The translations under genes and the position numbers were made by a program. From Escherichia coli (lineage in GTDB: Bacteria > Pseudomonadota > Gammaproteobacteria > Enterobacterales > Enterobacteriaceae), in the NCBI RefSeq assembly GCF_016026235.1, contig NZ_CP065613.1: a DNA stretch of 64,000 bases. The stretch is one strand, 5' to 3'. Shown here one piece after another: positions 4,284 through 21,258 of the stretch (the stretch's first letter is position 1; every line of letters starts with the position of its first letter). The notes beneath the pieces were generated by a model. That model was not told where the DNA came from, made no database searches, and was given only the letters and a program-made list of their open reading frames with translations.

Positions 4284-6428
4284 ATGTCTAACGTGCAGGA
4301 GTGGCAACAGCTTGCCAACAAGGAATTGAGCCGTCGGGAGAAAACTGTCGACTCGCTGGTTCAGCAAACCGCGGAAGGGATCACCATCAAGCCGCTGTAT
4401 ACCGAAGCCGATCTCGATAATCTGGAGGTGACAGGTACCCTTCCTGGTTTGCCGCCCTACGTTCGTGGCCCGCGTGCCACTATGTATACCGCCCAACCGT
4501 GGACCATCCGTCAGTATGCTGGTTTTTCAACAGCAAAAGAGTCCAACGCTTTTTATCGCCGTAACCTGGCCGCCGGGCAAAAAGGTCTTTCCGTTGCGTT
4601 TGACCTTGCCACCCACCGAGGCTACGACTCCGATAACCCGCGCGTGGCGGGCGACGTCGGCAAAGCGGGCGTCGCTATCGACACCGTGGAAGATATGAAA
4701 GTCCTGTTCGACCAGATCCCGCTGGATAAAATGTCGGTTTCGATGACCATGAATGGCGCAGTGCTACCAGTACTGGCGTTTTATATCGTCGCCGCAGAAG
4801 AGCAAGGTGTTACACCTGATAAACTGACCGGCACCATTCAGAACGATATCCTCAAAGAGTACCTCTGCCGCAACACCTATATTTACCCGCCAAAACCGTC
4901 AATGCGCATTATCGCCGACATCATCGCCTGGTGTTCCGGCAACATGCCGCGATTTAATACCATCAGTATCAGCGGTTACCACATGGGTGAAGCGGGTGCC
5001 AACTGCGTGCAGCAGGTAGCATTTACGCTCGCTGATGGGATTGAGTACATCAAAGCAGCAATCTCTGCCGGACTGAAAATTGATGACTTCGCTCCTCGCC
5101 TGTCGTTCTTCTTCGGCATCGGCATGGATCTGTTTATGAACGTCGCCATGTTGCGTGCGGCACGTTATTTATGGAGCGAAGCGGTCAGTGGATTTGGCGC
5201 ACAGGACCCGAAATCACTGGCGCTGCGTACCCACTGCCAGACCTCAGGCTGGAGCCTGACTGAACAGGATCCGTATAACAACGTTATCCGCACCACCATT
5301 GAAGCGCTGGCTGCGACGCTGGGCGGTACTCAGTCACTGCATACCAACGCCTTTGACGAAGCGCTTGGTTTGCCTACCGATTTCTCAGCACGCATTGCCC
5401 GCAACACCCAGATCATCATCCAGGAAGAATCAGAACTCTGCCGCACCGTCGATCCACTGGCCGGATCCTATTACATTGAGTCGCTGACCGATCAAATCGT
5501 CAAACAAGCCAGAGCTATTATCCAACAGATCGACGAAGCCGGTGGCATGGCGAAAGCGATCGAAGCAGGTCTGCCAAAACGAATGATCGAAGAGGCCTCA
5601 GCGCGCGAACAGTCGCTGATCGACCAGGGCAAGCGTGTCATCGTTGGTGTCAACAAGTACAAACTGGATCACGAAGACGAAACCGATGTACTTGAGATCG
5701 ACAACGTGATGGTGCGTAACGAGCAAATTGCTTCGCTGGAACGCATTCGCGCCACCCGTGATGATGCCGCCGTAACCGCCGCGTTGAACGCCCTGACTCA
5801 CGCCGCACAGCATAACGAAAACCTGCTGGCTGCCGCTGTTAATGCCGCTCGCGTTCGCGCCACCCTGGGTGAAATTTCCGATGCGCTGGAAGTCGCTTTC
5901 GACCGTTATCTGGTGCCAAGCCAGTGTGTTACCGGCGTGATTGCGCAAAGCTATCATCAGTCTGAGAAATCGGCCTCCGAGTTCGATGCCATTGTTGCGC
6001 AAACGGAGCAGTTCCTTGCCGACAATGGTCGTCGCCCGCGCATTCTGATCGCTAAGATGGGCCAGGATGGACACGATCGCGGCGCGAAAGTGATCGCCAG
6101 CGCCTATTCCGATCTCGGTTTCGACGTAGATTTAAGCCCGATGTTCTCTACACCTGAAGAGATCGCCCGCCTGGCCGTAGAAAACGACGTTCACGTAGTG
6201 GGCGCATCCTCACTGGCTGCCGGTCATAAAACGCTGATCCCGGAACTGGTCGAAGCGCTGAAAAAATGGGGACGCGAAGATATCTGCGTGGTCGCGGGTG
6301 GCGTCATTCCGCCGCAGGATTACGCCTTCCTGCAAGAGCGCGGCGTGGCGGCGATTTATGGTCCAGGTACACCTATGCTCGACAGTGTGCGCGACGTACT
6401 GAATCTGATAAGCCAGCATCATGATTAA
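4284..6428 (+). CDS. scpA: Methylmalonyl-CoA mutase (Sbm/ScpA)
   Basis: ORF trimmed to MSNVQEWQQ...; GGAG RBS at 4274..4277; B12-binding DxHxxG region ([10 protein letters not shown]). Confidence 0.93.
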
Positions 6429-7416
6429 TGAAGCCACGCTGGCAGAAAGTATTCGCCGCTTACGTCAGGGTGAGCGTGCCACACTCGCCCAGGCCATGAC
6501 GCTGGTGGAAAGCCGTCACCCGCGTCATCAGGCACTAAGTACGCAGCTGCTTGATGCCATTATGCCGTACTGCGGTAACACCCTGCGACTGGGCGTTACC
6601 GGCACCCCCGGCGCGGGGAAAAGTACCTTTCTTGAGGCCTTTGGCATGTTGTTGATTCGAGAGGGATTAAAGGTCGCGGTTATTGCGGTCAATCCCAGCA
6701 GCCCGGTCACTGGCGGTAGCATTCTCGGGGATAAAACCCGCATGAATGACCTGGCGCGTGCCGAAGCGGCGTTTATTCGCCCGGTACCATCCTCCGGTCA
6801 TCTGGGCGGTGCCAGTCAGCGAGCGCGGGAATTAATGCTGTTATGCGAAGCAGCGGGTTATGACGTAGTGATTGTCGAAACGGTTGGCGTCGGGCAGTCG
6901 GAAACAGAAGTCGCCCGCATGGTGGACTGTTTTATCTCGTTGCAAATTGCCGGTGGCGGCGATGATCTGCAGGGCATTAAAAAAGGGCTGATGGAAGTGG
7001 CTGATCTGATCGTTATCAACAAAGACGATGGCGATAACCATACCAATGTCGCCATTGCCCGGCATATGTACGAGAGTGCCCTGCATATTCTGCGACGTAA
7101 ATACGACGAATGGCAGCCACGGGTTCTGACTTGTAGCGCACTGGAAAAACGTGGAATCGATGAGATCTGGCACGCCATCATCGACTTCAAAACCGCGCTA
7201 ACTGCCAGTGGTCGTTTACAACAAGTGCGGCAACAACAATCGGTGGAATGGCTGCGTAAGCAGACCGAAGAAGAAGTACTGAATCACCTGTTCGCGAATG
7301 AAGATTTCGATCGCTATTACCGCCAGACGCTTTTAGCGGTCAAAAACAATACGCTCTCACCGCGCACCGGCCTGCGGCAGCTCAGTGAATTTATCCAGAC
7401 GCAATATTTTGATTAA
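6421..7416 (+). CDS. argK: MeaB/ArgK-type G-protein chaperone for methylmalonyl-CoA mutase
   Basis: 331 aa; P-loop GTPGAGKST; start overlaps the scpA stop by 8 bp. Confidence 0.93.
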
Positions 7417-8235: not shown

Positions 8236-9714
8236 ATGGAAACTCAGTGGACAAGGATGACCGCCGATGAAGCGGCAGAAATTATCCAGCATAACGACAT
8301 GGTGGCATTTAGCGGCTTTACCCCGGCGGGTTCGCCGAAAGCCCTACCCACCGCGATTGCCCGCAGAGCTAACGAACAGCATGAGGCCAAAAAGCCGTAT
8401 CAAATTCGCCTGCTGACGGGGGCGTCAATCAGCGCCGCCGCTGACGATGTACTTTCTGACGCCGATGCTGTTTCCTGGCGTGCGCCATATCAAACATCGT
8501 CCGGTTTACGTAAAAAGATCAATCAGGGCGCGGTGAGTTTCGTTGACCTGCATTTGAGCGAAGTGGCGCAAATGGTCAATTACGGTTTCTTCGGCGACAT
8601 TGATGTTGCCGTCATTGAAGCATCGGCACTGGCACCGGATGGTCGAGTCTGGTTAACCAGCGGGATCGGTAATGCGCCGACCTGGCTGCTGCGAGCGAAG
8701 AAAGTGATCATTGAACTTAATCACTATCACGATCCGCGCGTTGCAGAACTGGCAGATATTGTGATTCCTGGCGCGCCACCGCGGCGCAATAGCGTGTCGA
8801 TCTTCCATGCAATGGATCGCGTCGGTACCCGCTATGTGCAAATCGATCCGAAAAAGATTGTCGCCGTCGTGGAAACCAACTTGCCCGACGCCGGTAATAT
8901 GCTGGATAAGCAAAATCCCATGTGCCAGCAGATTGCCGATAACGTGGTCACGTTCTTATTGCAGGAAATGGCGCATGGGCGTATTCCGCCGGAATTTCTG
9001 CCGCTGCAAAGTGGCGTGGGCAATATCAATAATGCGGTAATGGCGCGTCTGGGGGAAAACCCGGAAATTCCTCCGTTCATGATGTATTCGGAAGTGCTAC
9101 AGGAATCGGTGGTGCATTTACTGGAAACCGGCAAAATCAGCGGGGCCAGCGCCTCCAGCCTGACAATCTCGGCCGATTCCCTGCGCAAGATTTACGACAA
9201 TATGGATTACTTTGCCAGCCGCATTGTGTTGCGTCCGCAGGAGATTTCCAATAACCCGGAAATCATCCGTCGTCTGGGCGTCATCGCTCTGAACGTCGGC
9301 CTGGAGTTTGATATTTACGGGCATGCCAACTCAACGCACGTAGCCGGGGTCGATCTGATGAACGGCATCGGCGGCAGCGGTGATTTTGAACGCAACGCGT
9401 ATCTGTCGATCTTTATGGCTCCGTCGATTGCTAAAGAAGGCAAGATCTCAACCGTCGTGCCAATGTGCAGCCATGTTGATCACAGCGAACACAGCGTCAA
9501 AGTGATCATCACCGAACAAGGGATCGCCGATCTGCGCGGTCTTTCCCCGCTTCAACGCGCCCGCACTATCATTGATAATTGTGCACATCCTATGTATCGG
9601 GATTATCTGCATCGCTATCTGGAAAATGCGCCCGGCGGACATATTCACCACGATCTTAGCCACGTCTTCGACTTACACCGTAATTTAATTGCAACCGGCT
9701 CGATGCTGGGTTAA
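8236..9714 (+). CDS. scpC: Propionyl-CoA:succinate CoA transferase
   Basis: 492-aa ORF, recognised sequence. Confidence 0.93.
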   Translation: METQWTRMTADEAAEIIQHNDMVAFSGFTPAGSPKALPTAIARRANEQHEAKKPYQIRLLTGASISAAADDVLSDADAVSWRAPYQTSSGLRKKINQGAVSFVDLHLSEVAQMVNYGFFGDIDVAVIEASALAPDGRVWLTSGIGNAPTWLLRAKKVIIELNHYHDPRVAELADIVIPGAPPRRNSVSIFHAMDRVGTRYVQIDPKKIVAVVETNLPDAGNMLDKQNPMCQQIADNVVTFLLQEMAHGRIPPEFLPLQSGVGNINNAVMARLGENPEIPPFMMYSEVLQESVVHLLETGKISGASASSLTISADSLRKIYDNMDYFASRIVLRPQEISNNPEIIRRLGVIALNVGLEFDIYGHANSTHVAGVDLMNGIGGSGDFERNAYLSIFMAPSIAKEGKISTVVPMCSHVDHSEHSVKVIITEQGIADLRGLSPLQRARTIIDNCAHPMYRDYLHRYLENAPGGHIHHDLSHVFDLHRNLIATGSMLG

Positions 9715-16105: not shown

Positions 16106-17125
16106 TTACCTGAAAGCAACAGTAGCCATAGCTAACGTCGTGTCGAGCATTCGGTTAGCAAAGCCCCATTCGTTATCGCACCAGACCAACGTTTTGATCA
16201 GGTGTGCGCCACTGACCCGGGTTTGGGTGCCATCGACAATGGCACTGTGCGGATCGTGGTTAAAATCTACAGAGACCAACGGCAATTCCGTATAGTCAAC
16301 TATACCATGAAATGCACCTTGTGCTGCTTTTTGCAGCAACAGGTTGACTTCATTGGCTTTTACAGGTTTCTTCACCGTCACGCTTAAATCGATTGCCGTC
16401 ACATTTATGGTTGGCACACGTACCGCAATCGCTTCAAAGCGATCGTTAAATTGCGGAAAAAATCGTGTGATACCGGCGGCCAGTTTAGTATCGACCGGAA
16501 TGATCGACTGGCTGGCTGCCCGAGTGCGACGCAGGTCAGGATGGTATGCATCAATAACCTGTTGATCGTGCATGGCGGAGTGAATTGTGGTCACTGTGCC
16601 GGACTCAATACCGTACGCATCATCTAACAATTTGATGACGGGAATTATGCAATTCGTGGTACAGGAAGCGTTAGAAACGATGCGGTGTTCCGCACGAAGT
16701 TGATCCTGATTGACGCCGTAAACAACGGTCGCGTCGAGATCGTTACTGCCAGGATGTGAAAAGAGCACTTTTTTGGCCCCAGCGGCAATATGCGCTTCGC
16801 CATGCTCGCGGGAGCCATATACGCCGGTGCAGTCGAGGACTACATCAACGCCAAGTTCACGCCAGGGGAGCGATTGCAGTGAACGTTCATGCAATACGCG
16901 GATGGCGTCATCACCAACAAAAAGTTGATCGCGTTCCTGTCGTACTTCCCATGCAAAACGGCCATGGCTGGTGTCATATTTCAACAAATGCGCCATGCCC
17001 GCAGCATCCGCCAGTTCGTTGATTGCCACCACGGTAATTTCCGCCCGGCGTCCGGATTCATACAAAGCACGAACCACATTACGCCCGATGCGACCGAAGC
17101 CATTTATCGCTACGCGTACGGTCAT
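16106..17125 (-). CDS. epd: D-erythrose-4-phosphate dehydrogenase
   Basis: ORF trimmed to [15 protein letters not shown]...; 339 aa. Confidence 0.95.
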
Positions 17126-17496
17126 AGATCTCCTGCAAGGTTTTCCCTGAGCAAATTTGCCAGACAGAGTAATCCAGCAAATCGTCCGGGGAAACCTTAC
17201 CTGTCGCAAACTGCGACTGATTGGTTAATTGTCGAACATTTAATCGACTGAAACGCTTCAGCTAGGATAAGCGAAACGTGGAATAAAAGGAATGATTGTC
17301 CAGTCAAAGAAAGCAATTATCTGACTTACGTCACGTTTTCAGCCCCGCCCCTGTGGAATTTATTCCACTTTGCAGAATCACGAATAAGCGTAGCAAAATC
17401 TTTTCGTTGTGCCGTCACAAACCCTGACTTATATCAGAATATGACTGATGCAGCGTCGATATTATCCGCAATACGTCCGAGTTTCGGAGTACTCCA

Positions 17497-17928
17497 ATGA
17501 TGACATTGCCCTACCCATATTCTTCCTCCGCACGCTTTTACGCACTGCGCCTCCTCCCTGGGCAGGAAGTTTTTTCCCAGCTACACGCTTTTGCACAGCA
17601 GCATCAACTTCATGCCGCCTGGATTGCAGGCTGTACCGGTAGCCTGACTGACGTCGCCTTGCGCTATGCCGGGCAAGAAGGCACCACGCTCCTGAACGGT
17701 ACATTCGAAGTGATCTCACTAAACGGCACGCTGGAACAGAGTGGTGAGCATCTTCATCTCTGCGTTTCCGATCCACACGGCACGATGCTTGGCGGTCATA
17801 TGATGCCCGGCTGTACCGTGCGGACCACGCTTGAACTGGTGATCGGTAGCCTTGAGGAACTGGCGTTTAGCCGCCAACCTTGCGCGCTTTCTGGTTACGA
17901 CGAGTTGCATATTTCCCCCGTTAAATAA
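17497..17928 (+). CDS. DUF296 / PCC-domain-like protein (about 143 aa), first gene of the accessory cluster
   Basis: Resembles PCC-domain proteins by my recognition; no HMM was run; GGAG 9 nt upstream of ATG. Confidence 0.6.
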   Translation: MMTLPYPYSSSARFYALRLLPGQEVFSQLHAFAQQHQLHAAWIAGCTGSLTDVALRYAGQEGTTLLNGTFEVISLNGTLEQSGEHLHLCVSDPHGTMLGGHMMPGCTVRTTLELVIGSLEELAFSRQPCALSGYDELHISPVK

Positions 17929-17950
17929 CTACTTTCAAAGAGGTTTTCTT

Positions 17951-18529
17951 ATGGCGCGTAGCCACTTTTCCAGTCAGGCACTGGTGTTGATCGTTATATC
18001 TATCGCCATCAATATGATCGGCGGGCAACTGGCCAGCATGGTCAAATTACCTATATTTCTCGACTCCATCGGCACACTTATTAGCGCGGTACTGCTTGGT
18101 CCGGTGATCGGAATGCTGACCGGCTTACTGACCAATTTACTCTGGGGATTGCTGACCGACCCGATCGCCGCCGCATTTGCACCCGTCGCGATGGTCATCG
18201 GCCTGGTCGCCGGTTGGCTGGCGCGAGCGGGTTGGTTTCGCACCCTGCCAAAAGTCGTTGTCAGCGGCGTGATTATTACGCTTGCGGTAACGGTCGTCGC
18301 TGTACCGCTGCGTACTGCGCTGTTCGGCGGTGTCACCGGTAGCGGAGCCGATTTGTTCGTTGCCTGGATGCACTCGATGGGGCAAAACCTGGTGGAGTCG
18401 GTGGCGATTACGGTGATAGGCGCGAACCTGGTCGATAAAATTCTTACAGCGGTGATTGTCTGGCTTTTACTGCGCCAGCTGCCGATTCGCACCACGCGCC
18501 ATTTTCCGGCAATGGCTGCCGTGCGCTAA
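17951..18529 (+). CDS. Small polytopic membrane protein, putative ECF-transporter substrate-capture (S) component
   Basis: ORF trimmed to ATG 17951 (AAGAGG RBS at 17936..17941); about 192 aa, very hydrophobic; sits immediately before the T component. Confidence 0.55.
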   Translation: MARSHFSSQALVLIVISIAINMIGGQLASMVKLPIFLDSIGTLISAVLLGPVIGMLTGLLTNLLWGLLTDPIAAAFAPVAMVIGLVAGWLARAGWFRTLPKVVVSGVIITLAVTVVAVPLRTALFGGVTGSGADLFVAWMHSMGQNLVESVAITVIGANLVDKILTAVIVWLLLRQLPIRTTRHFPAMAAVR

Positions 18530-19237
18530 ATGCATCCATTTACCTCATTAACACTGTGGGCATTGGCGGCCTGCACCACGCTTATCCTGCCCGCGCAGAC
18601 CATTTTGCCGATCTATAGCGCGGCGACCTTTTTCTGCCTTATTGCGCTAAAGGCCACGCGGCGGCGGGCAAAATATGTCGTCTGGCTGATGTTCTCGCTG
18701 GGAGCCGGGCTGTGGCTGGTACACGGTGGCTGGCTACCAGAATGGCTAAGCGGCACGCCACGCTCGCCAGAACGGTGGTCGCATGCTATTACGCTCTGGT
18801 TGCGGATTCTGGCGATTGTTTCAACCTCACAGTTGTGGATGCAGTACGTCCCCGTGCAATGTTTTATTCGCGCTCTGTTTGCTTCTCGCCTGCCGCCAGG
18901 CGTCGCTTATCTGTTTGCCGGGCCGTTATTGGTCGTTGAGCAGTTAAAACGGCAATTAGCGATTATTCATGAAGCGCAGCGTGCCCGCGGCGTGTCGCTG
19001 GATGAGGGCTGGTATCAGCGTTTACGTGCGATGCCCGCGTTAATTATTCCGCTAACACACAATGCGCTTAACGATCTGGCTGTCCGTGGTGCGGCGCTGG
19101 ATATGCGGGCATTTCGGATCCACAACCGACGAACAACGTTGTGGGCACCAGCCGATAGCACCCTACAACGCGTAGCGCGTTACACCATGATCTTGCTGAT
19201 GCTGACAGAATTCGGAGCGTGGATATGGTTACGTTAG
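18530..19237 (+). CDS. ECF-transporter transmembrane (T) component, CbiQ/EcfT-like
   Basis: 235 aa; Ala-Arg-Gly coupling motif in QRARGVS; start abuts the previous stop. Confidence 0.7.
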   Translation: MHPFTSLTLWALAACTTLILPAQTILPIYSAATFFCLIALKATRRRAKYVVWLMFSLGAGLWLVHGGWLPEWLSGTPRSPERWSHAITLWLRILAIVSTSQLWMQYVPVQCFIRALFASRLPPGVAYLFAGPLLVVEQLKRQLAIIHEAQRARGVSLDEGWYQRLRAMPALIIPLTHNALNDLAVRGAALDMRAFRIHNRRTTLWAPADSTLQRVARYTMILLMLTEFGAWIWLR

Positions 19238-19902
19238 AACAGTTCCGTTATTGCCCGACACACTCAACGCATCCTCCGTTCTGTTATGACTTTCACTATG
19301 TCAAACCGGGGATGGTCGCCATCTTTGGTGACAACGGCAGTGGCAAAAGTACGCTGGCACAGCTGATGGCGGGCTGGTATCCGGACTTTCTGCCAGGAGA
19401 GATAACAGGCACGGGGACGCTCCTCGGTACGCCCATTGGGCATCTCCCGCTTAATGAACAATCCGCCACCATCCAGCTCGTCCAGCAATCGCCCTATTTG
19501 CAGCTCTCCGGCTGTACCTTTAGCGTGGAAGAAGAAGTTGCCTTTGGGCCAGAAAATCTGTGTCTTGCTGAAGCAGAGATTATGGCGCGGATTGATGCCG
19601 CCCTGACTCTGACCGAGTGCCAGCCGTTGCGCCATCGTCACCTGGCAACACTCTCCGGTGGAGAGACACAGCGCGTGGTCATCGCCTGCGCCATCGCGAT
19701 GCAGCCAAAGCTCTTAATTCTTGATGAAGCCTTTAGCCGCCTGACTCCGCAGGCCAGCGAAATGCTGTTGCAGCGCTTACAACACTGGGCGTTTGAACGT
19801 GGTTCGCTGATTATTCTTTTTGAACGTCATCGCACACCTTTCCTGAACTACTGCCAGCAAGCGTGGCAATTGCAAAACGGAGCGCTCCAGCCACTATGTT
19901 AA
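19219..19902 (+). CDS. ABC ATPase (ECF A component) with canonical motifs
   Basis: Walker A GDNGSGKST, signature LSGGETQR, Walker B LLILDEA. Confidence 0.8.
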   Translation: MDMVTLEQFRYCPTHSTHPPFCYDFHYVKPGMVAIFGDNGSGKSTLAQLMAGWYPDFLPGEITGTGTLLGTPIGHLPLNEQSATIQLVQQSPYLQLSGCTFSVEEEVAFGPENLCLAEAEIMARIDAALTLTECQPLRHRHLATLSGGETQRVVIACAIAMQPKLLILDEAFSRLTPQASEMLLQRLQHWAFERGSLIILFERHRTPFLNYCQQAWQLQNGALQPLC

Positions 19903-20573
19903 CGTTAAATAAGATATCTTATCGCTGGCCTGGCGCGGCAACGGATTGTCTTTGCGACATTTCTCTGCAACTCAAACAAGGTGAATGGTTGGCGCTGACC
20001 GGCGACAATGGCGCGGGAAAATCGACGCTGTTACGAGTAATGGCAGGTCTTCTTACGCCCACAGCCGGTACGGTTATGCTGCAACAACAGGCGATGAAAA
20101 ACCTGAAAAACCGCCAGCGCGCGGCAAAGGTTGGCGTACTGTTTCAGGAAGCGGAAAACCAACTTTTTCACAGCACCGTCGCTGACGAGATCGCATTTGG
20201 TTTGAAACTGCAAAAATGCCCGGCGGATGAAATCACTCAACGTACCCATGCTGCCCTGCAATGTTGTCAGTTAGCAGACACTGCCAACTCGCACCCGTTG
20301 GATCTGCATAGTGCGCAGCGACGGATGGTCGCCGTCGCCTGCCTGGAAGCACTCTCTCCGCCACTATTACTGCTGGACGAGCCGAGTCGGGATTTTGACG
20401 AAAATTGGTTGAGCGTGTTTGAAAGCTGGCTGGAGAAGTGCCGCCAGCGAGGCACGAACGTGGTAGCAATCAGTCATGACGCCGCATTTACCCGGCGTCA
20501 TTTCTCTCGTGTGGTGCGACTGGAAGATGGTGTAATCAGGAACGTTAATCCACCAGACGATATTCACCCGTAG
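19896..20573 (+). CDS. ABC ATPase (ECF A' component) with degenerate signature motif
   Basis: Walker A GDNGAGKST, Walker B LLLLDEPS, H-loop SHD, but LHSAQRR in place of LSGGQ; ATG overlaps the previous stop (ATGTTAA). Confidence 0.75.
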   Translation: MLTLNKISYRWPGAATDCLCDISLQLKQGEWLALTGDNGAGKSTLLRVMAGLLTPTAGTVMLQQQAMKNLKNRQRAAKVGVLFQEAENQLFHSTVADEIAFGLKLQKCPADEITQRTHAALQCCQLADTANSHPLDLHSAQRRMVAVACLEALSPPLLLLDEPSRDFDENWLSVFESWLEKCRQRGTNVVAISHDAAFTRRHFSRVVRLEDGVIRNVNPPDDIHP

Positions 20574-21258
20574 CGGTCATCATTAAGGTCAAATTTGCAG
20601 GCAGACTCTCTTCCAGCACCCGGCGAACATTCGGCCCGTCGGTACGGTCATAAAAGGCTTCTGCATCTGCCAGCGATACCCCTCCCGCCAGCTTGCGCCC
20701 CACCAGACGCTCCCGCAACGCAGTAGCTGGCGCGTTGATAAAGATCGAGAAATCACAAAATTGCGCAAGCTGGCACCACTTCTCGTCGTCCAGCAACAAC
20801 CAGTTTCCTTCGACGATGACGAGTGGTGCGGTAACGTGCAACGCATCTTCAACAGGATCATGCTTTTGTCGATCGTACTGCGGCCACGTACAATCCCCTT
20901 CCACCACCTGGCGCAGATTTTCCGCCAGTTTCGCAACGTCAAATGTCTCTGGTGCGCCTTTGAAGGGGCGCAATTGATGCGCGTCCAGCCAGCTATTGTA
21001 ATGGTGAAAACCATCCATCGGGAGCGTCTGAATAGCGGGTAGTTCCGGGTCTTGTTGCGCGAGATATTCCCAGAAGGTGGTTAGGGTAGATTTACCCGTC
21101 CCCGGCGGAGCGCAAAGAAAAACTACCGTACGCCGCTGTGGATTTACCGTCTGTAAGGCCGCCAACATGCGCAGCAACGGTTTATGTACATTTTCTATTT
21201 CATCATCAGAGTACTGAGCCTGTACCTTTAGTCCATTCACCGTCAGTTCGATTTTCAC
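20545..21258 (-). CDS. yggC: P-loop kinase-like protein
   Basis: 237 aa, Walker A GTGKST. Confidence 0.9.
   Translation of the reverse strand: MKIELTVNGLKVQAQYSDDEIENVHKPLLRMLAALQTVNPQRRTVVFLCAPPGTGKSTLTTFWEYLAQQDPELPAIQTLPMDGFHHYNSWLDAHQLRPFKGAPETFDVAKLAENLRQVVEGDCTWPQYDRQKHDPVEDALHVTAPLVIVEGNWLLLDDEKWCQLAQFCDFSIFINAPATALRERLVGRKLAGGVSLADAEAFYDRTDGPNVRRVLEESLPANLTLMMTATGEYRLVD

Follow-up and report, generated by a model that had tools for sequence, protein, structure and literature searches.

O-island 119 of Escherichia coli: an apparently ancestral, polymorphic operon pairing a PCC-domain protein with a predicted dedicated ECF importer

The window analysed here is a stretch of 64,000 nucleotides of Escherichia coli (contig NZ_CP065613.1). 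Five closely packed plus-strand genes occupy its positions 17497-20573, between epd and yggC, and the list of open reading frames agrees on them with the RefSeq annotation of an O157:H7 genome. The first gene (17497-17928), the orthologue of lmiA/z4267, encodes a stand-alone PCC/DUF296 protein of 143 aa (Pfam PF03479, E 7.7e-29). It is followed by an ECF S component (z4268 orthologue, 17951-18529), a six-helix membrane protein of 192 aa (PF12822 ECF_trnsprt, E 1.8e-8), by the scaffolding and coupling T component (z4269 orthologue, 18530-19237, 235 aa; PF02361 CbiQ, E 1.4e-4), and by two ECF ABC ATPases of 225 aa each (z4270 orthologue, 19225-19902; z4271 orthologue, 19896-20573), whose best NCBIfam matches are TIGR04520 ECF_ATPase_1 and TIGR04521 ECF_ATPase_2 respectively. 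The first intervals measure 22 and 0 nt; there is then an overlap of 13 nt between the T gene and the start of ATPase 1 and one of 7 nt between ATPase 1 and the start of ATPase 2, and the 3' end of the last gene runs 29 nt into the convergent yggC. The gene sizes, order and coupled starts given in an earlier note on this DNA are all correct, as is its recognition of a PCC/DUF296 protein, an S component, a T component with an Ala-Arg-Gly motif and two ABC ATPases, in agreement with the Pfam and NCBIfam matches and the motifs described below.

This cluster is O-island 119 (OI-119, z4267-z4271) of EHEC O157:H7, that is, the lmiA-ecfS-ecfT-ecfA-ecfA' operon, because the O157:H7 genome is 98.8% identical to the window over 17126-20580, carries the identical five-gene annotation, and has its published PhoP footprint, -35, -10 and transcription start base matched exactly. 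Gene by gene, the identity ranges from 97.9 to 99.6% (99.1% for lmiA at the nucleotide level). The strain itself is non-O157, unlike EDL933, and its best match is FDAARGOS_943 (99.9%). The size of OI-119 is given in the literature as 3.12 kb or 3267 bp. The earlier note could assign the cluster to no described system; in fact, its PCC gene has been studied experimentally. In EHEC, lmiA is activated by PhoP and induced by low Mg, and it regulates biofilm genes as well as LEE and gad (Liu et al., mBio 2020; Gut Microbes 2024), its product being a DNA-binding regulator that binds the ler and gad promoters. There z4268 and z4269 count as coding for hypothetical proteins and the island is taken to be horizontally acquired, whereas here the two genes are identified as those of the S component and the T component, and an ancestral origin of the island is indicated. 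OI-119 and the regulator lmiA were already known; the polymorphism, the ancestry, the survey of PCC-S loci, the nucleoside hint and the FNR-like site are added here. No description of a functional PCC-ECF link or of the cargo of the importer was found in the literature searched.

The published lmiA promoter is located on the plus strand at 17370-17407, with exact matches to the -35 TTGCAG (17370-17375), the -10 TAGCAAAAT (17391-17399) and the start base T (17407); at low Mg2+ PhoP activates transcription, which begins 90 nt before the ATG (Liu et al. 2020). The PhoP DNase I footprint CTTACGTCACGTTTTCAGC from the same study, again an exact match (17325-17343, plus strand), overlaps a CRP-like TCTGA-N6-TCAC (17320-17335) that is kept in K-12 too, and the upstream alignment shows this footprint/CRP-like region to be conserved across genera. 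A palindrome resembling FNR/CRP-family sites, CTGACTTATATCAG (17424-17437, plus strand; consensus cTGAT-TTAT-ATCAg), is conserved in 18 of 19 Enterobacteriaceae upstream sequences. It lies downstream of the mapped transcription start. Its centre precedes a conserved TATTAT (17460-17465) by 29.5 nt, a class II geometry with a second start at about 17472, and we infer that it may function as an FNR-like site. Such a conserved site is consistent with the reported induction on oxygen depletion, since in strain Sakai the OI-119 genes are up 2.3-2.9-fold as O2 is depleted, together with nik and hyp genes. A pattern search by Bergholz et al. reported no FNR site upstream of the OI-119 ORFs. A further palindrome conserved across genera, TCCGAG-TT-TCGGAG (17476-17489, plus strand), includes the lmiA Shine-Dalgarno GGAG and may be either a small hairpin occluding it or a protein site. 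The Rfam scan proposed in the earlier note gave no riboswitch or other match upstream of lmiA. The window does not contain the 17-bp motif published for LmiA, so that nothing points to autoregulation.

The distribution of the cluster speaks to its origin. In K-12-type genomes epd and yggC are directly adjacent, 284 bp apart, and blastn places the end of K-12 homology near window position 17334 and its restart at 20614; the OI-119-equivalent segment (17335-20613) measures 3279 bp here and is represented there by 144 bp. The absence from K-12, which the earlier note had put forward, is established by these break points. Among 5426 complete E. coli genomes, 3319 (61%) contain the cluster and 2094 (about 39%) the K-12 junction: the locus is a two-allele polymorphism. 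In E. albertii a single collinear alignment runs from fbaA to yggP, cluster included, at 94% identity (80% in Citrobacter), and in both taxa the cluster genes and the flanking genes are about equally diverged. The cluster adjoins epd in 17 enterobacterial loci, and no repeats typical of mobile elements were found at the locus. Collinearity with similarly diverged flanks argues that the cluster is ancestral next to epd in enterobacteria and would have been deleted in the K-12-like strains, about 39% of E. coli; taken with its presence in 61% of complete genomes, it also argues against a recent, pathogen-specific acquisition.

These observations bear on the reading suggested by the literature, in which LmiA is a horizontally acquired transcription factor for EHEC/EPEC virulence and the transporter is an unrelated or redundant Co2+ ECF importer sharing the island by chance. 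The action of LmiA at ler and gadA/gadBC is documented by EMSA, footprinting, ChIP-qPCR, reporter and complementation experiments, and deletion of z4268-z4271 had no effect on adherence or on LEE. That deletion result has no bearing on the cargo. This reading is nevertheless improbable, given an island that is collinear with its flanks, diverged like them and widespread in E. coli, a PCC-S-T-A-A unit that is kept in organisms devoid of LEE, from Chloroflexota to Synergistaceae, and a LmiA protein that is acidic, has one Lys and lacks an AT-hook.

The transporter genes themselves do not favour the cobalt part of this reading. The AF2 model of the S protein (pLDDT 95) has ECF S components as all 16 of its 16 best Foldseek matches in the PDB, including RibU, FolT, ThiT, PanT, BioY, 4huq_S and 5edl (the last two of which we take to be HmpT and YkoE), and its AFDB50 matches are ECF S components as well, so that the S fold proposed for the 192-aa protein in the earlier note is upheld. 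In Pfam the sole match of this protein is PF12822, the general family of vitamin-type S components; it scores 136 bits against the nearest NCBIfam model, NF045596, under the cut-off of 180, and gave no CbiM/NikM or CbiN match in the profile search. The polar residues N21, D38, T42, D162 and K163 are conserved family-wide, and no His, Cys or Met is found among the invariant positions. The T protein carries two XRG coupling motifs (ARG, 152-154; VRG, 185-187), and natural S-T fusion proteins occur in the family. ATPase 1 combines Walker A GDNGSGKS, signature LSGGE and Walker B LLILDE; ATPase 2 has Walker A GDNGAGKS, a degenerate signature LHSAQ, Walker B LLLLDE and the H-loop SHD. On these matches and motifs, the four downstream genes are predicted to form a complete importer of the dedicated (group I) ECF type, whose S protein belongs to a large uncharacterised vitamin-type S family and not to the Co/Ni CbiM type.

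The group I importers YkoEDC(-YkoF), BioMNY and QrtTUVW likewise unite S, T and two A genes within a single operon, with the same S fold and T XRG motifs, and YkoF of the thiamine/HMP operon ykoCDEF is, as the PCC protein here, a soluble cytoplasmic protein encoded in the operon. The present system differs from them by another S family, by the absence of a riboswitch, by its PCC/DUF296 soluble partner and by its short ATPases (225 aa), one of them with a degenerate signature. The cobalt annotation is found because T and A match models named CbiQ and CbiO; CbiMNQO/NikMNQO systems, in contrast, comprise a CbiM/NikM-type S and CbiN, neither of which is present here. The label combines inherited annotation, the habit suspected in the earlier note, with an unpublished thesis proposal concerning STM3071-STM3075 of Salmonella Typhimurium, whose S component is 92% identical and whose PCC protein is orthologous. 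That locus has been presented as a putative ECF operon of five genes, reportedly activated under anaerobic conditions; Co2+ import, with STM3071 as regulator, is suggested for it at the level of the thesis cited, and no published substrate for it was found.

The substrate could not be deduced from the cluster alone, as had been anticipated, and a hint comes from more distant relatives. In 27 loci with S at 169 bits or less (about 40-47% identity), one or two Rih/IunH-type ribonucleoside hydrolases are encoded in 19, directly upstream of S in the sister loci examined; a ribokinase occurs in 8 and a YhhQ-type transporter in 5. No hydrolase is present in E. coli-type loci. A ribonucleoside-like or heterocyclic compound is tentatively suggested by this context as a possible cargo and is most likely a better candidate than cobalt, for which the chances appear slim. 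The hint derives from a sister clade that is only 40-47% identical. PhoP/low-Mg control and nik/hyp co-induction would fit a metal cargo too.

The importer could be envisaged as carrying a divalent metal (Mg2+, Ni2+ or Co2+), the PCC protein with its three His residues being a metal sensor or chaperone. Besides the PhoP-activated promoter and the co-induction of nik and hyp at low O2, a Zn site has been proposed in LmiA, its His triad is invariant, and the conserved Asp, Asn and Thr of S could ligate a hard cation. This remains highly improbable: S is not of the CbiM/NikM type, its conserved Lys adjoins a conserved Asp (D162-K163), the sister clades are set among nucleoside catabolic genes, and no ECF importer for a metal is known to us to work with an S component of the PF12822 type.

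The association between the PCC protein and the importer extends far beyond E. coli. Of 80 loci encoding this S family, 64 also have a PCC gene, and these fall into at least six groups of phylum or class rank. Where S scores at least 181 bits (53 loci, in Enterobacterales, Aeromonas, Wohlfahrtiimonas, Beta-/Alphaproteobacteria, Synergistaceae, Desulfobulbales and Chloroflexota), PCC lies directly upstream of S on the same strand in 51; several loci show 4-nt stop/start overlaps, and Citrobacter sp. R56 has an in-frame PCC-S fusion ORF. No flanks outside the five genes are conserved across loci, and the module is therefore self-contained. This survey argues that the PCC-ECF pairing is an ancient module common to many bacterial phyla and not a pathogen-specific acquisition.

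In 64 of 64 aligned PCC orthologues (pI 4.7-6.05) the triad His85/His87/His101 is invariant, and E71, R56, D92, T110, T111, E113, R126, Y134 and E136 are also conserved. LmiA (pI 5.65) consists of this domain alone. It shares the PPC/PCC domain PF03479 with plant AHL proteins, in which DNA is contacted by the AT-hook; unlike these, it is acidic and, with no RGRP in its sequence, lacks an AT-hook. The Salmonella orthologue has a crystal structure (2NMU/2HX0; phmmer E 4e-75, about 81% identity counted from the alignment), and all PDB relatives, AF0104 (2H6L) among them, are structural-genomics entries without function. In SCOP, the grouping 'AF0104/ALDC/Ptd012-like' places DUF296 beside two Zn enzymes, acetolactate decarboxylase and PTD012. 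This placement, the conserved residues and acidity, the first position of PCC in the operon, the overlapping codons and the fusion ORF would all suit a protein that is not primarily a regulator but a cytoplasmic metallo-enzyme or cargo-binding protein, processing or receiving the imported compound in the manner of YkoF, and holding the slot of the Rih-type hydrolases of sister operons. [quoted passage not shown] Stand-alone PCC proteins have no known enzymatic activity. The published DNA binding requires no link to the transporter, a point against a partnership of the two.

The best explanation as a whole, with a probability of roughly 0.55, is that OI-119 is an ancestral operon for an ECF micronutrient importer with a PCC partner. 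The S component would capture a small organic micronutrient on the outside of the membrane and topple against the T scaffold as the ATPase heterodimer, with one consensus and one degenerate site, cycles ATP. FNR probably also drives expression, from a putative second promoter, under scarce oxygen. The acidic PCC protein with its three-His site would partner this importer on the cytoplasmic side, most likely as a metal-dependent ligand sensor relaying cargo status to transcription, and the control of LEE and gad by LmiA in EHEC would represent a later co-option.

The five-gene cluster is O-island 119 (OI-119; z4267-z4271) of EHEC O157:H7 EDL933. Its genes, its chromosomal site and the mapped promoter elements of its first gene, lmiA, all match. 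The genes lie on the plus strand of the window and encode the PCC protein LmiA (17497-17928), an S component (17951-18529), a T component (18530-19237), ATPase 1 (19225-19902) and ATPase 2 (19896-20573), according to the ORF list and to RefSeq, which annotates the five genes alike in an O157:H7 genome with 98.8% identity over the interval. Between successive genes the spacing is 22 nt and then 0 nt, and the last two junctions overlap by 13 and 7 nt; no internal terminator was found above the chance level by a terminator scan. The S, T and A genes therefore appear to share one operon, as expected of a dedicated module. In the ORF list, the cluster is flanked by fbaA-pgk-epd on the 5' side and by yggC-fumE-glpX-yggP on the 3' side, all on the minus strand. 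In a K-12-type genome, only 284 bp separate epd from yggC, and the homology to K-12 stops near 17334 and restarts at 20614. The absence from K-12 reported in the earlier note is thus confirmed, and every checkable detail of its description was accurate with respect to the ORF list, the annotation, the family searches and the K-12 comparison. The feature is real and had been read correctly, but it is already catalogued as OI-119/lmiA and is hence not undescribed. OI-119 is the sole ECF module observed at the epd-yggC locus, and none of the PADLOC defence models matched.

Roles in EHEC/EPEC virulence, acid resistance and biofilm formation have been reported for lmiA. Its product was described as a DUF296 protein, and its promoter as bound and activated by PhoP (Liu et al., mBio 2020; Gut Microbes 2024). 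In these papers LmiA reportedly binds a 17-bp motif in the LEE1/ler promoter, plus gadA/gadBC, on the evidence of EMSA, footprinting, ChIP-qPCR, reporter assays and complementation, and His85, His87 and His101 were proposed as a zinc site. The same authors termed z4268 and z4269 hypothetical, found no adherence phenotype upon deletion of z4268-z4271, and regarded OI-119 as horizontally acquired. A separate paper, of 2024, mentions a putative five-gene ECF operon of Salmonella, which appears to be anaerobically activated and for which Co2+ import was suggested, from a PhD thesis on STM3071. What is already known is therefore the island and its first gene.

The acquisition of the island by horizontal transfer can be confronted with its distribution. 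The whole cluster is present in 3319 of 5426 complete E. coli genomes (about 61%) and the K-12-type junction in 2094 of them; at this locus the species shows a biallelic polymorphism with hardly any exceptions. About 13 of the 5426 genomes lack both the complete cluster and the K-12 junction, and two matching places in the collection sit on plasmids. One collinear block, cluster included, extends across fbaA-yggP with 94% identity to E. albertii and about 80% to Citrobacter, and in both comparisons the cluster genes have diverged about as much as the flanking genes. The cluster adjoins epd in 17 enterobacterial loci, where the 3' neighbour is either yggC-fumE-glpX or a 663-aa gene read as a putative transketolase (tktA). 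No flanking direct repeats beyond chance-size matches and no mobility hallmarks were found by a repeat scan of the cluster, whose GC content (0.53-0.58) is slightly above that of its flanks. A horizontally acquired island was rejected on the absence of mobility hallmarks and on the concordant divergence. Taken together, collinearity, flank-like divergence, near-flank GC content and the lack of mobility hallmarks make vertical inheritance, with deletion in K-12-type lineages rather than acquisition by pathogens, what would be the simplest reading.

Two local irregularities were observed in this region. In Escherichia albertii NBRC 107761 (locus L003, 8269-8952), the gene of the first ATPase is broken into a pair of ORFs (8269-8739 and 8749-8952), possibly a pseudogene or an assembly error. 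In the window, yggC (20545-21258, minus strand) has a 29-nt convergent overlap with the 3' end of the second ATPase gene. Its product is 85% identical to K-12 YggC, the C-terminal third being the most diverged, and its nucleotide identity to O157:H7 is 93.7% versus 98-99% in the neighbouring genes, a deficit which suggests old divergent haplotypes or recombination.

The assignment of the four downstream genes to an ECF transporter is consistent at the level of each subunit, the family searches having matched DUF296, an S component, CbiQ/EcfT and ECF-type ATPases. The S component matches PF12822 in Pfam (E 1.8e-8), and the AF2 model of its 192 residues, built with 60 homologues, has a mean pLDDT of 95. 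The 16 best PDB matches of this model are without exception ECF S components (TM 0.5-0.69), including RibU, FolT, ThiT, PanT and BioY as well as 4huq_S and 5edl, which we take to be HmpT and YkoE. Its AFDB50 matches, found in bacteria and haloarchaea, are overwhelmingly annotated as ECF S components. The predicted structure thus agrees with an S component of six-helix S fold, as the earlier note had supposed. With 748 clusters at 50% identity (E < 1e-10), the family is large. It is related to, yet outside, the equivalog NF045596 (CD3073 family putative ECF S component), the nearest curated model, against which the protein scores 136 bits for a curated cut-off of 180, all surveyed clades being equally below it with 128-145 bits. 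Natural S-T fusion proteins occur within the family (P0152, P0169 and P0245). In three further members (P0221, P0234 and P0231; 447-935 aa), an S-like six-helix domain is found N-terminal to sensor histidine kinases, and these fusions suggest that such a domain also serves as a membrane ligand sensor.

The T component matches PF02361 (CbiQ/EcfT; Pfam E 1.4e-4) and carries two X-Arg-Gly coupling motifs, ARG at 152-154 and VRG at 185-187. The best matches of the ATPases are the ECF_ATPase_1 and ECF_ATPase_2 models, under the equivalog cut-offs; both proteins are short, with 225 aa versus 269 and 279 model positions. Walker A, signature and Walker B are all canonical in ATPase 1, where the context of the H-loop is unusual (ERH). 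ATPase 2 has Walker A and B and a degenerate signature, LHSAQ instead of LSGGQ. These two peculiarities would leave the pair with one consensus and one degenerate nucleotide site. By its S, T and A components and their common operon, the cluster can be classified as a putative group I ECF importer. No transport or uptake assay with a defined substrate was found for it in the literature searched.

The frequent designation of such genes as a cobalt transporter was examined in this light. CbiMNQO and NikMNQO systems possess an S component of the CbiM/NikM type, with an N-terminal metal-binding motif, and an additional CbiN/NikN subunit, whereas the cluster has neither. Indeed, none of the five proteins matched the CbiM, NikM or CbiN families of NCBIfam and Pfam, and the ORF list of the cluster contains no extra small membrane gene. 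A cobalt/nickel transporter of this kind was consequently rejected. With nothing resembling CbiM/NikM or CbiN, the label derives from how the T and A models are named, in line with its earlier description as an annotation habit, and should be flagged as an unsupported annotation. A permissive Rfam scan of 16900-20800, of the kind proposed in the earlier note to look for a riboswitch in the leader, found none, its one lncRNA match being at the chance level. A vitamin ECF operon controlled by a known riboswitch was set aside on this basis.

The association between the PCC gene and the transporter was surveyed in one genome per species using a single conserved S-component peptide pattern. The S-family locus search was built on a 15-sequence alignment, the 60-sequence version being too diverse, and the best 80 of at least 577 confirmed loci were analyzed. 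Genes were crude, mechanical six-frame ORFs scored with phmmer and a clean PCC HMM, and taxa are the labels of the database records. Within these best 80 of at least 577 loci, 64 contain a PCC gene and 70+ have the S, T, A order of the cluster. The S component scores 181 bits or more (identity of about 49% upwards) in 53 loci of this set, and in 51 of these PCC lies directly upstream on the same strand, with 4-nt stop/start overlaps in several PCC-S pairs. These loci belong to Enterobacteriaceae, Morganellaceae and Hafniaceae/Budviciaceae, and also to Aeromonas, Wohlfahrtiimonas, Beta- and Alphaproteobacteria, Synergistaceae, Desulfobulbales and Chloroflexota. Genes beyond the five-gene unit are not conserved between the surveyed taxa, and outside Enterobacteriaceae the flanks of the E. 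coli-type module have no common theme. The five genes therefore form what behaves like a self-contained module, and this speaks for a functional coupling between PCC and ECF that would be older than any role in LEE regulation. No useful report of a link between PCC/DUF296 and ECF transporters, or between ECF transporters and nucleoside hydrolases, was found in the literature searched, which was equally unproductive for the CD3073 family and for C. difficile locus tags.

One of the 53 loci, from Citrobacter sp. R56 (L055, 6428-7579), has PCC fused in frame to S as a single 383-aa ORF, the PCC stop codon being lost. The ORF reflects either a sequencing error or a genuine fusion, in which the soluble partner would be joined to the N-terminal, cytoplasmic end of S; among 270 S-family proteins compared, no PCC-S fusion was found. 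In seven Chloroflexota loci (L044, at 6211-6561, L049, L051, L052, L054, L056 and L057), a gene for a 111-141-aa protein adjoins the PCC-ECF module. This protein resembles the C-terminal half of YedF, of selenium metabolism (106 bits, cut-off 110).

A hint to the cargo comes from the more distant members of the same set. With S scores of at most 169 bits (about 40-47% identity), 27 of the best 80 of at least 577 loci form this group, mostly Chloroflexota together with two Bacillota MAGs and Kaistia. One or two Rih/IunH-type ribonucleoside hydrolases are present in 19 of the 27, directly upstream of S where examined, a ribokinase above its equivalog cut-off in eight, and a YhhQ-type queuosine-precursor transporter in five. 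PCC is found in about 11, usually convergent and just past the second ATPase. Because of these hydrolase, ribokinase and YhhQ neighbours, the association suggests a ribonucleoside-like cargo for the S family, on the evidence of a sister clade and not of the E. coli-type operon. The polar residues N21, D38, T42, D162 and K163 are conserved throughout the family.

LmiA itself matches PF03479 (PCC) over model positions 1-116 of 117 (E 7.7e-29). H85, H87 and H101 are found in 64/64 aligned PCC orthologues, from loci among the best 80 of at least 577, which makes LmiA a PCC/PPC (DUF296) domain protein with the conserved HxH...H triad. E71, R56, D92, T110, T111, E113, R126, Y134 and E136 are also conserved in these 64 orthologues, all of them acidic (pI 4.7-6.05); LmiA has one Lys, five Arg and a pI of 5.65. 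AHL-type proteins carry an AT-hook, with its Arg-Gly-Arg-Pro core, beside the PPC domain. In contrast, no RGRP/GRP motif occurs in the 143 aa of LmiA, and a DNA-binding protein of that type was rejected. The conserved residues look more like a metal or ligand site than a DNA-binding surface. This is no contradiction of the published DNA binding. The Salmonella orthologue has crystal structures (2NMU and 2HX0), presumably of STM3071, and seven orphan crystal structures exist for bacterial DUF296 proteins. PDB 2H6L is among the PDB matches of the PCC protein; SCOP groups this DUF296 entry (AF0104) alongside acetolactate decarboxylase and PTD012, both zinc enzymes. A PDB profile search with PCC reached only structural-genomics DUF296 entries and no acetolactate decarboxylase, and a model of LmiA built without an alignment was unusably poor (pLDDT 37).

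Upstream of lmiA, exact matches to the published elements were found for the PhoP footprint (17325-17343), the -35 (17370-17375) and -10 (17391-17399) elements and the transcription start, a T at 17407. Aligning 19 enterobacterial upstream regions revealed three conserved blocks downstream of this mapped start: the FNR/CRP-family-like palindrome CTGACTTATATCAG at 17424-17437 (consensus cTGAT-TTAT-ATCAg), a TATTAT at 17460-17465, and a palindrome over the Shine-Dalgarno of lmiA at 17476-17489. The TATTAT lies 29.5 nt from the centre of the first palindrome, a class II spacing that predicts a start near 17472, and we infer from this arrangement an FNR-dependent second lmiA promoter. In O157:H7 Sakai, ECs3799, ECs3800 and ECs3802 rise 2.3-2.9-fold as oxygen is depleted and share an expression cluster with many FNR-regulated genes, which agrees with the apparent anaerobic activation of the Salmonella operon. 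A promoter scan stayed at the chance level. With up to 3 mismatches allowed, the window contains no copy of the 17-bp LmiA operator motif, so that autoregulation through this motif is unsupported.

The epd-lmiA intergenic region also contains a Cra/FruR-like palindrome CTGAAACGCTTCAG (17248-17261) and a CRP-like TCTGA-N6-TCAC (17320-17335), both conserved across enterobacterial genera. K-12 retains the epd-proximal half of the region with these two boxes, which for both reasons are probably elements of the divergent epd promoter. The PhoP footprint of lmiA overlaps the CRP-like site. A perfect palindrome, GTGGAAT-TT-ATTCCAC, abuts the published -35 element at 17353-17368; its half TTATTCCA is conserved across genera, and the K-12 copy is degenerate.

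The cluster represents a new and uncharacterised ECF importer whose soluble partner is both conserved and unusual. Beyond the known island, the analysis contributes its apparent ancestral origin, a PCC-ECF module found across phyla, sister operons with a nucleoside-hydrolase context, a candidate FNR site and the rejection of the cobalt label. The presence of PCC with the ECF module across phyla, on an island that seems ancestral, casts LmiA as one component of a nutrient-uptake module, and this module provides a first functional context for bacterial DUF296 proteins. Tentatively, with a probability of about 0.3, the stand-alone PCC/DUF296 protein would be the dedicated cytoplasmic partner, a His3-metal protein sensing or processing the ligand, of a widespread and uncharacterised family of ECF importers for nucleoside-like compounds; the control of LEE, gad and biofilm genes by LmiA in EHEC would then have arisen secondarily, by co-option of a cargo-status signal, and virulence would respond to the imported gut metabolite in addition to Mg2+ and oxygen. 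E. coli K-12 is not known to encode another ECF transporter. This orphan importer is carried by about 61% of the complete E. coli genomes and by many other Enterobacterales. The view of LmiA as a component of such a module turns the identity of the cargo and its possible effect on LmiA into directly testable questions.
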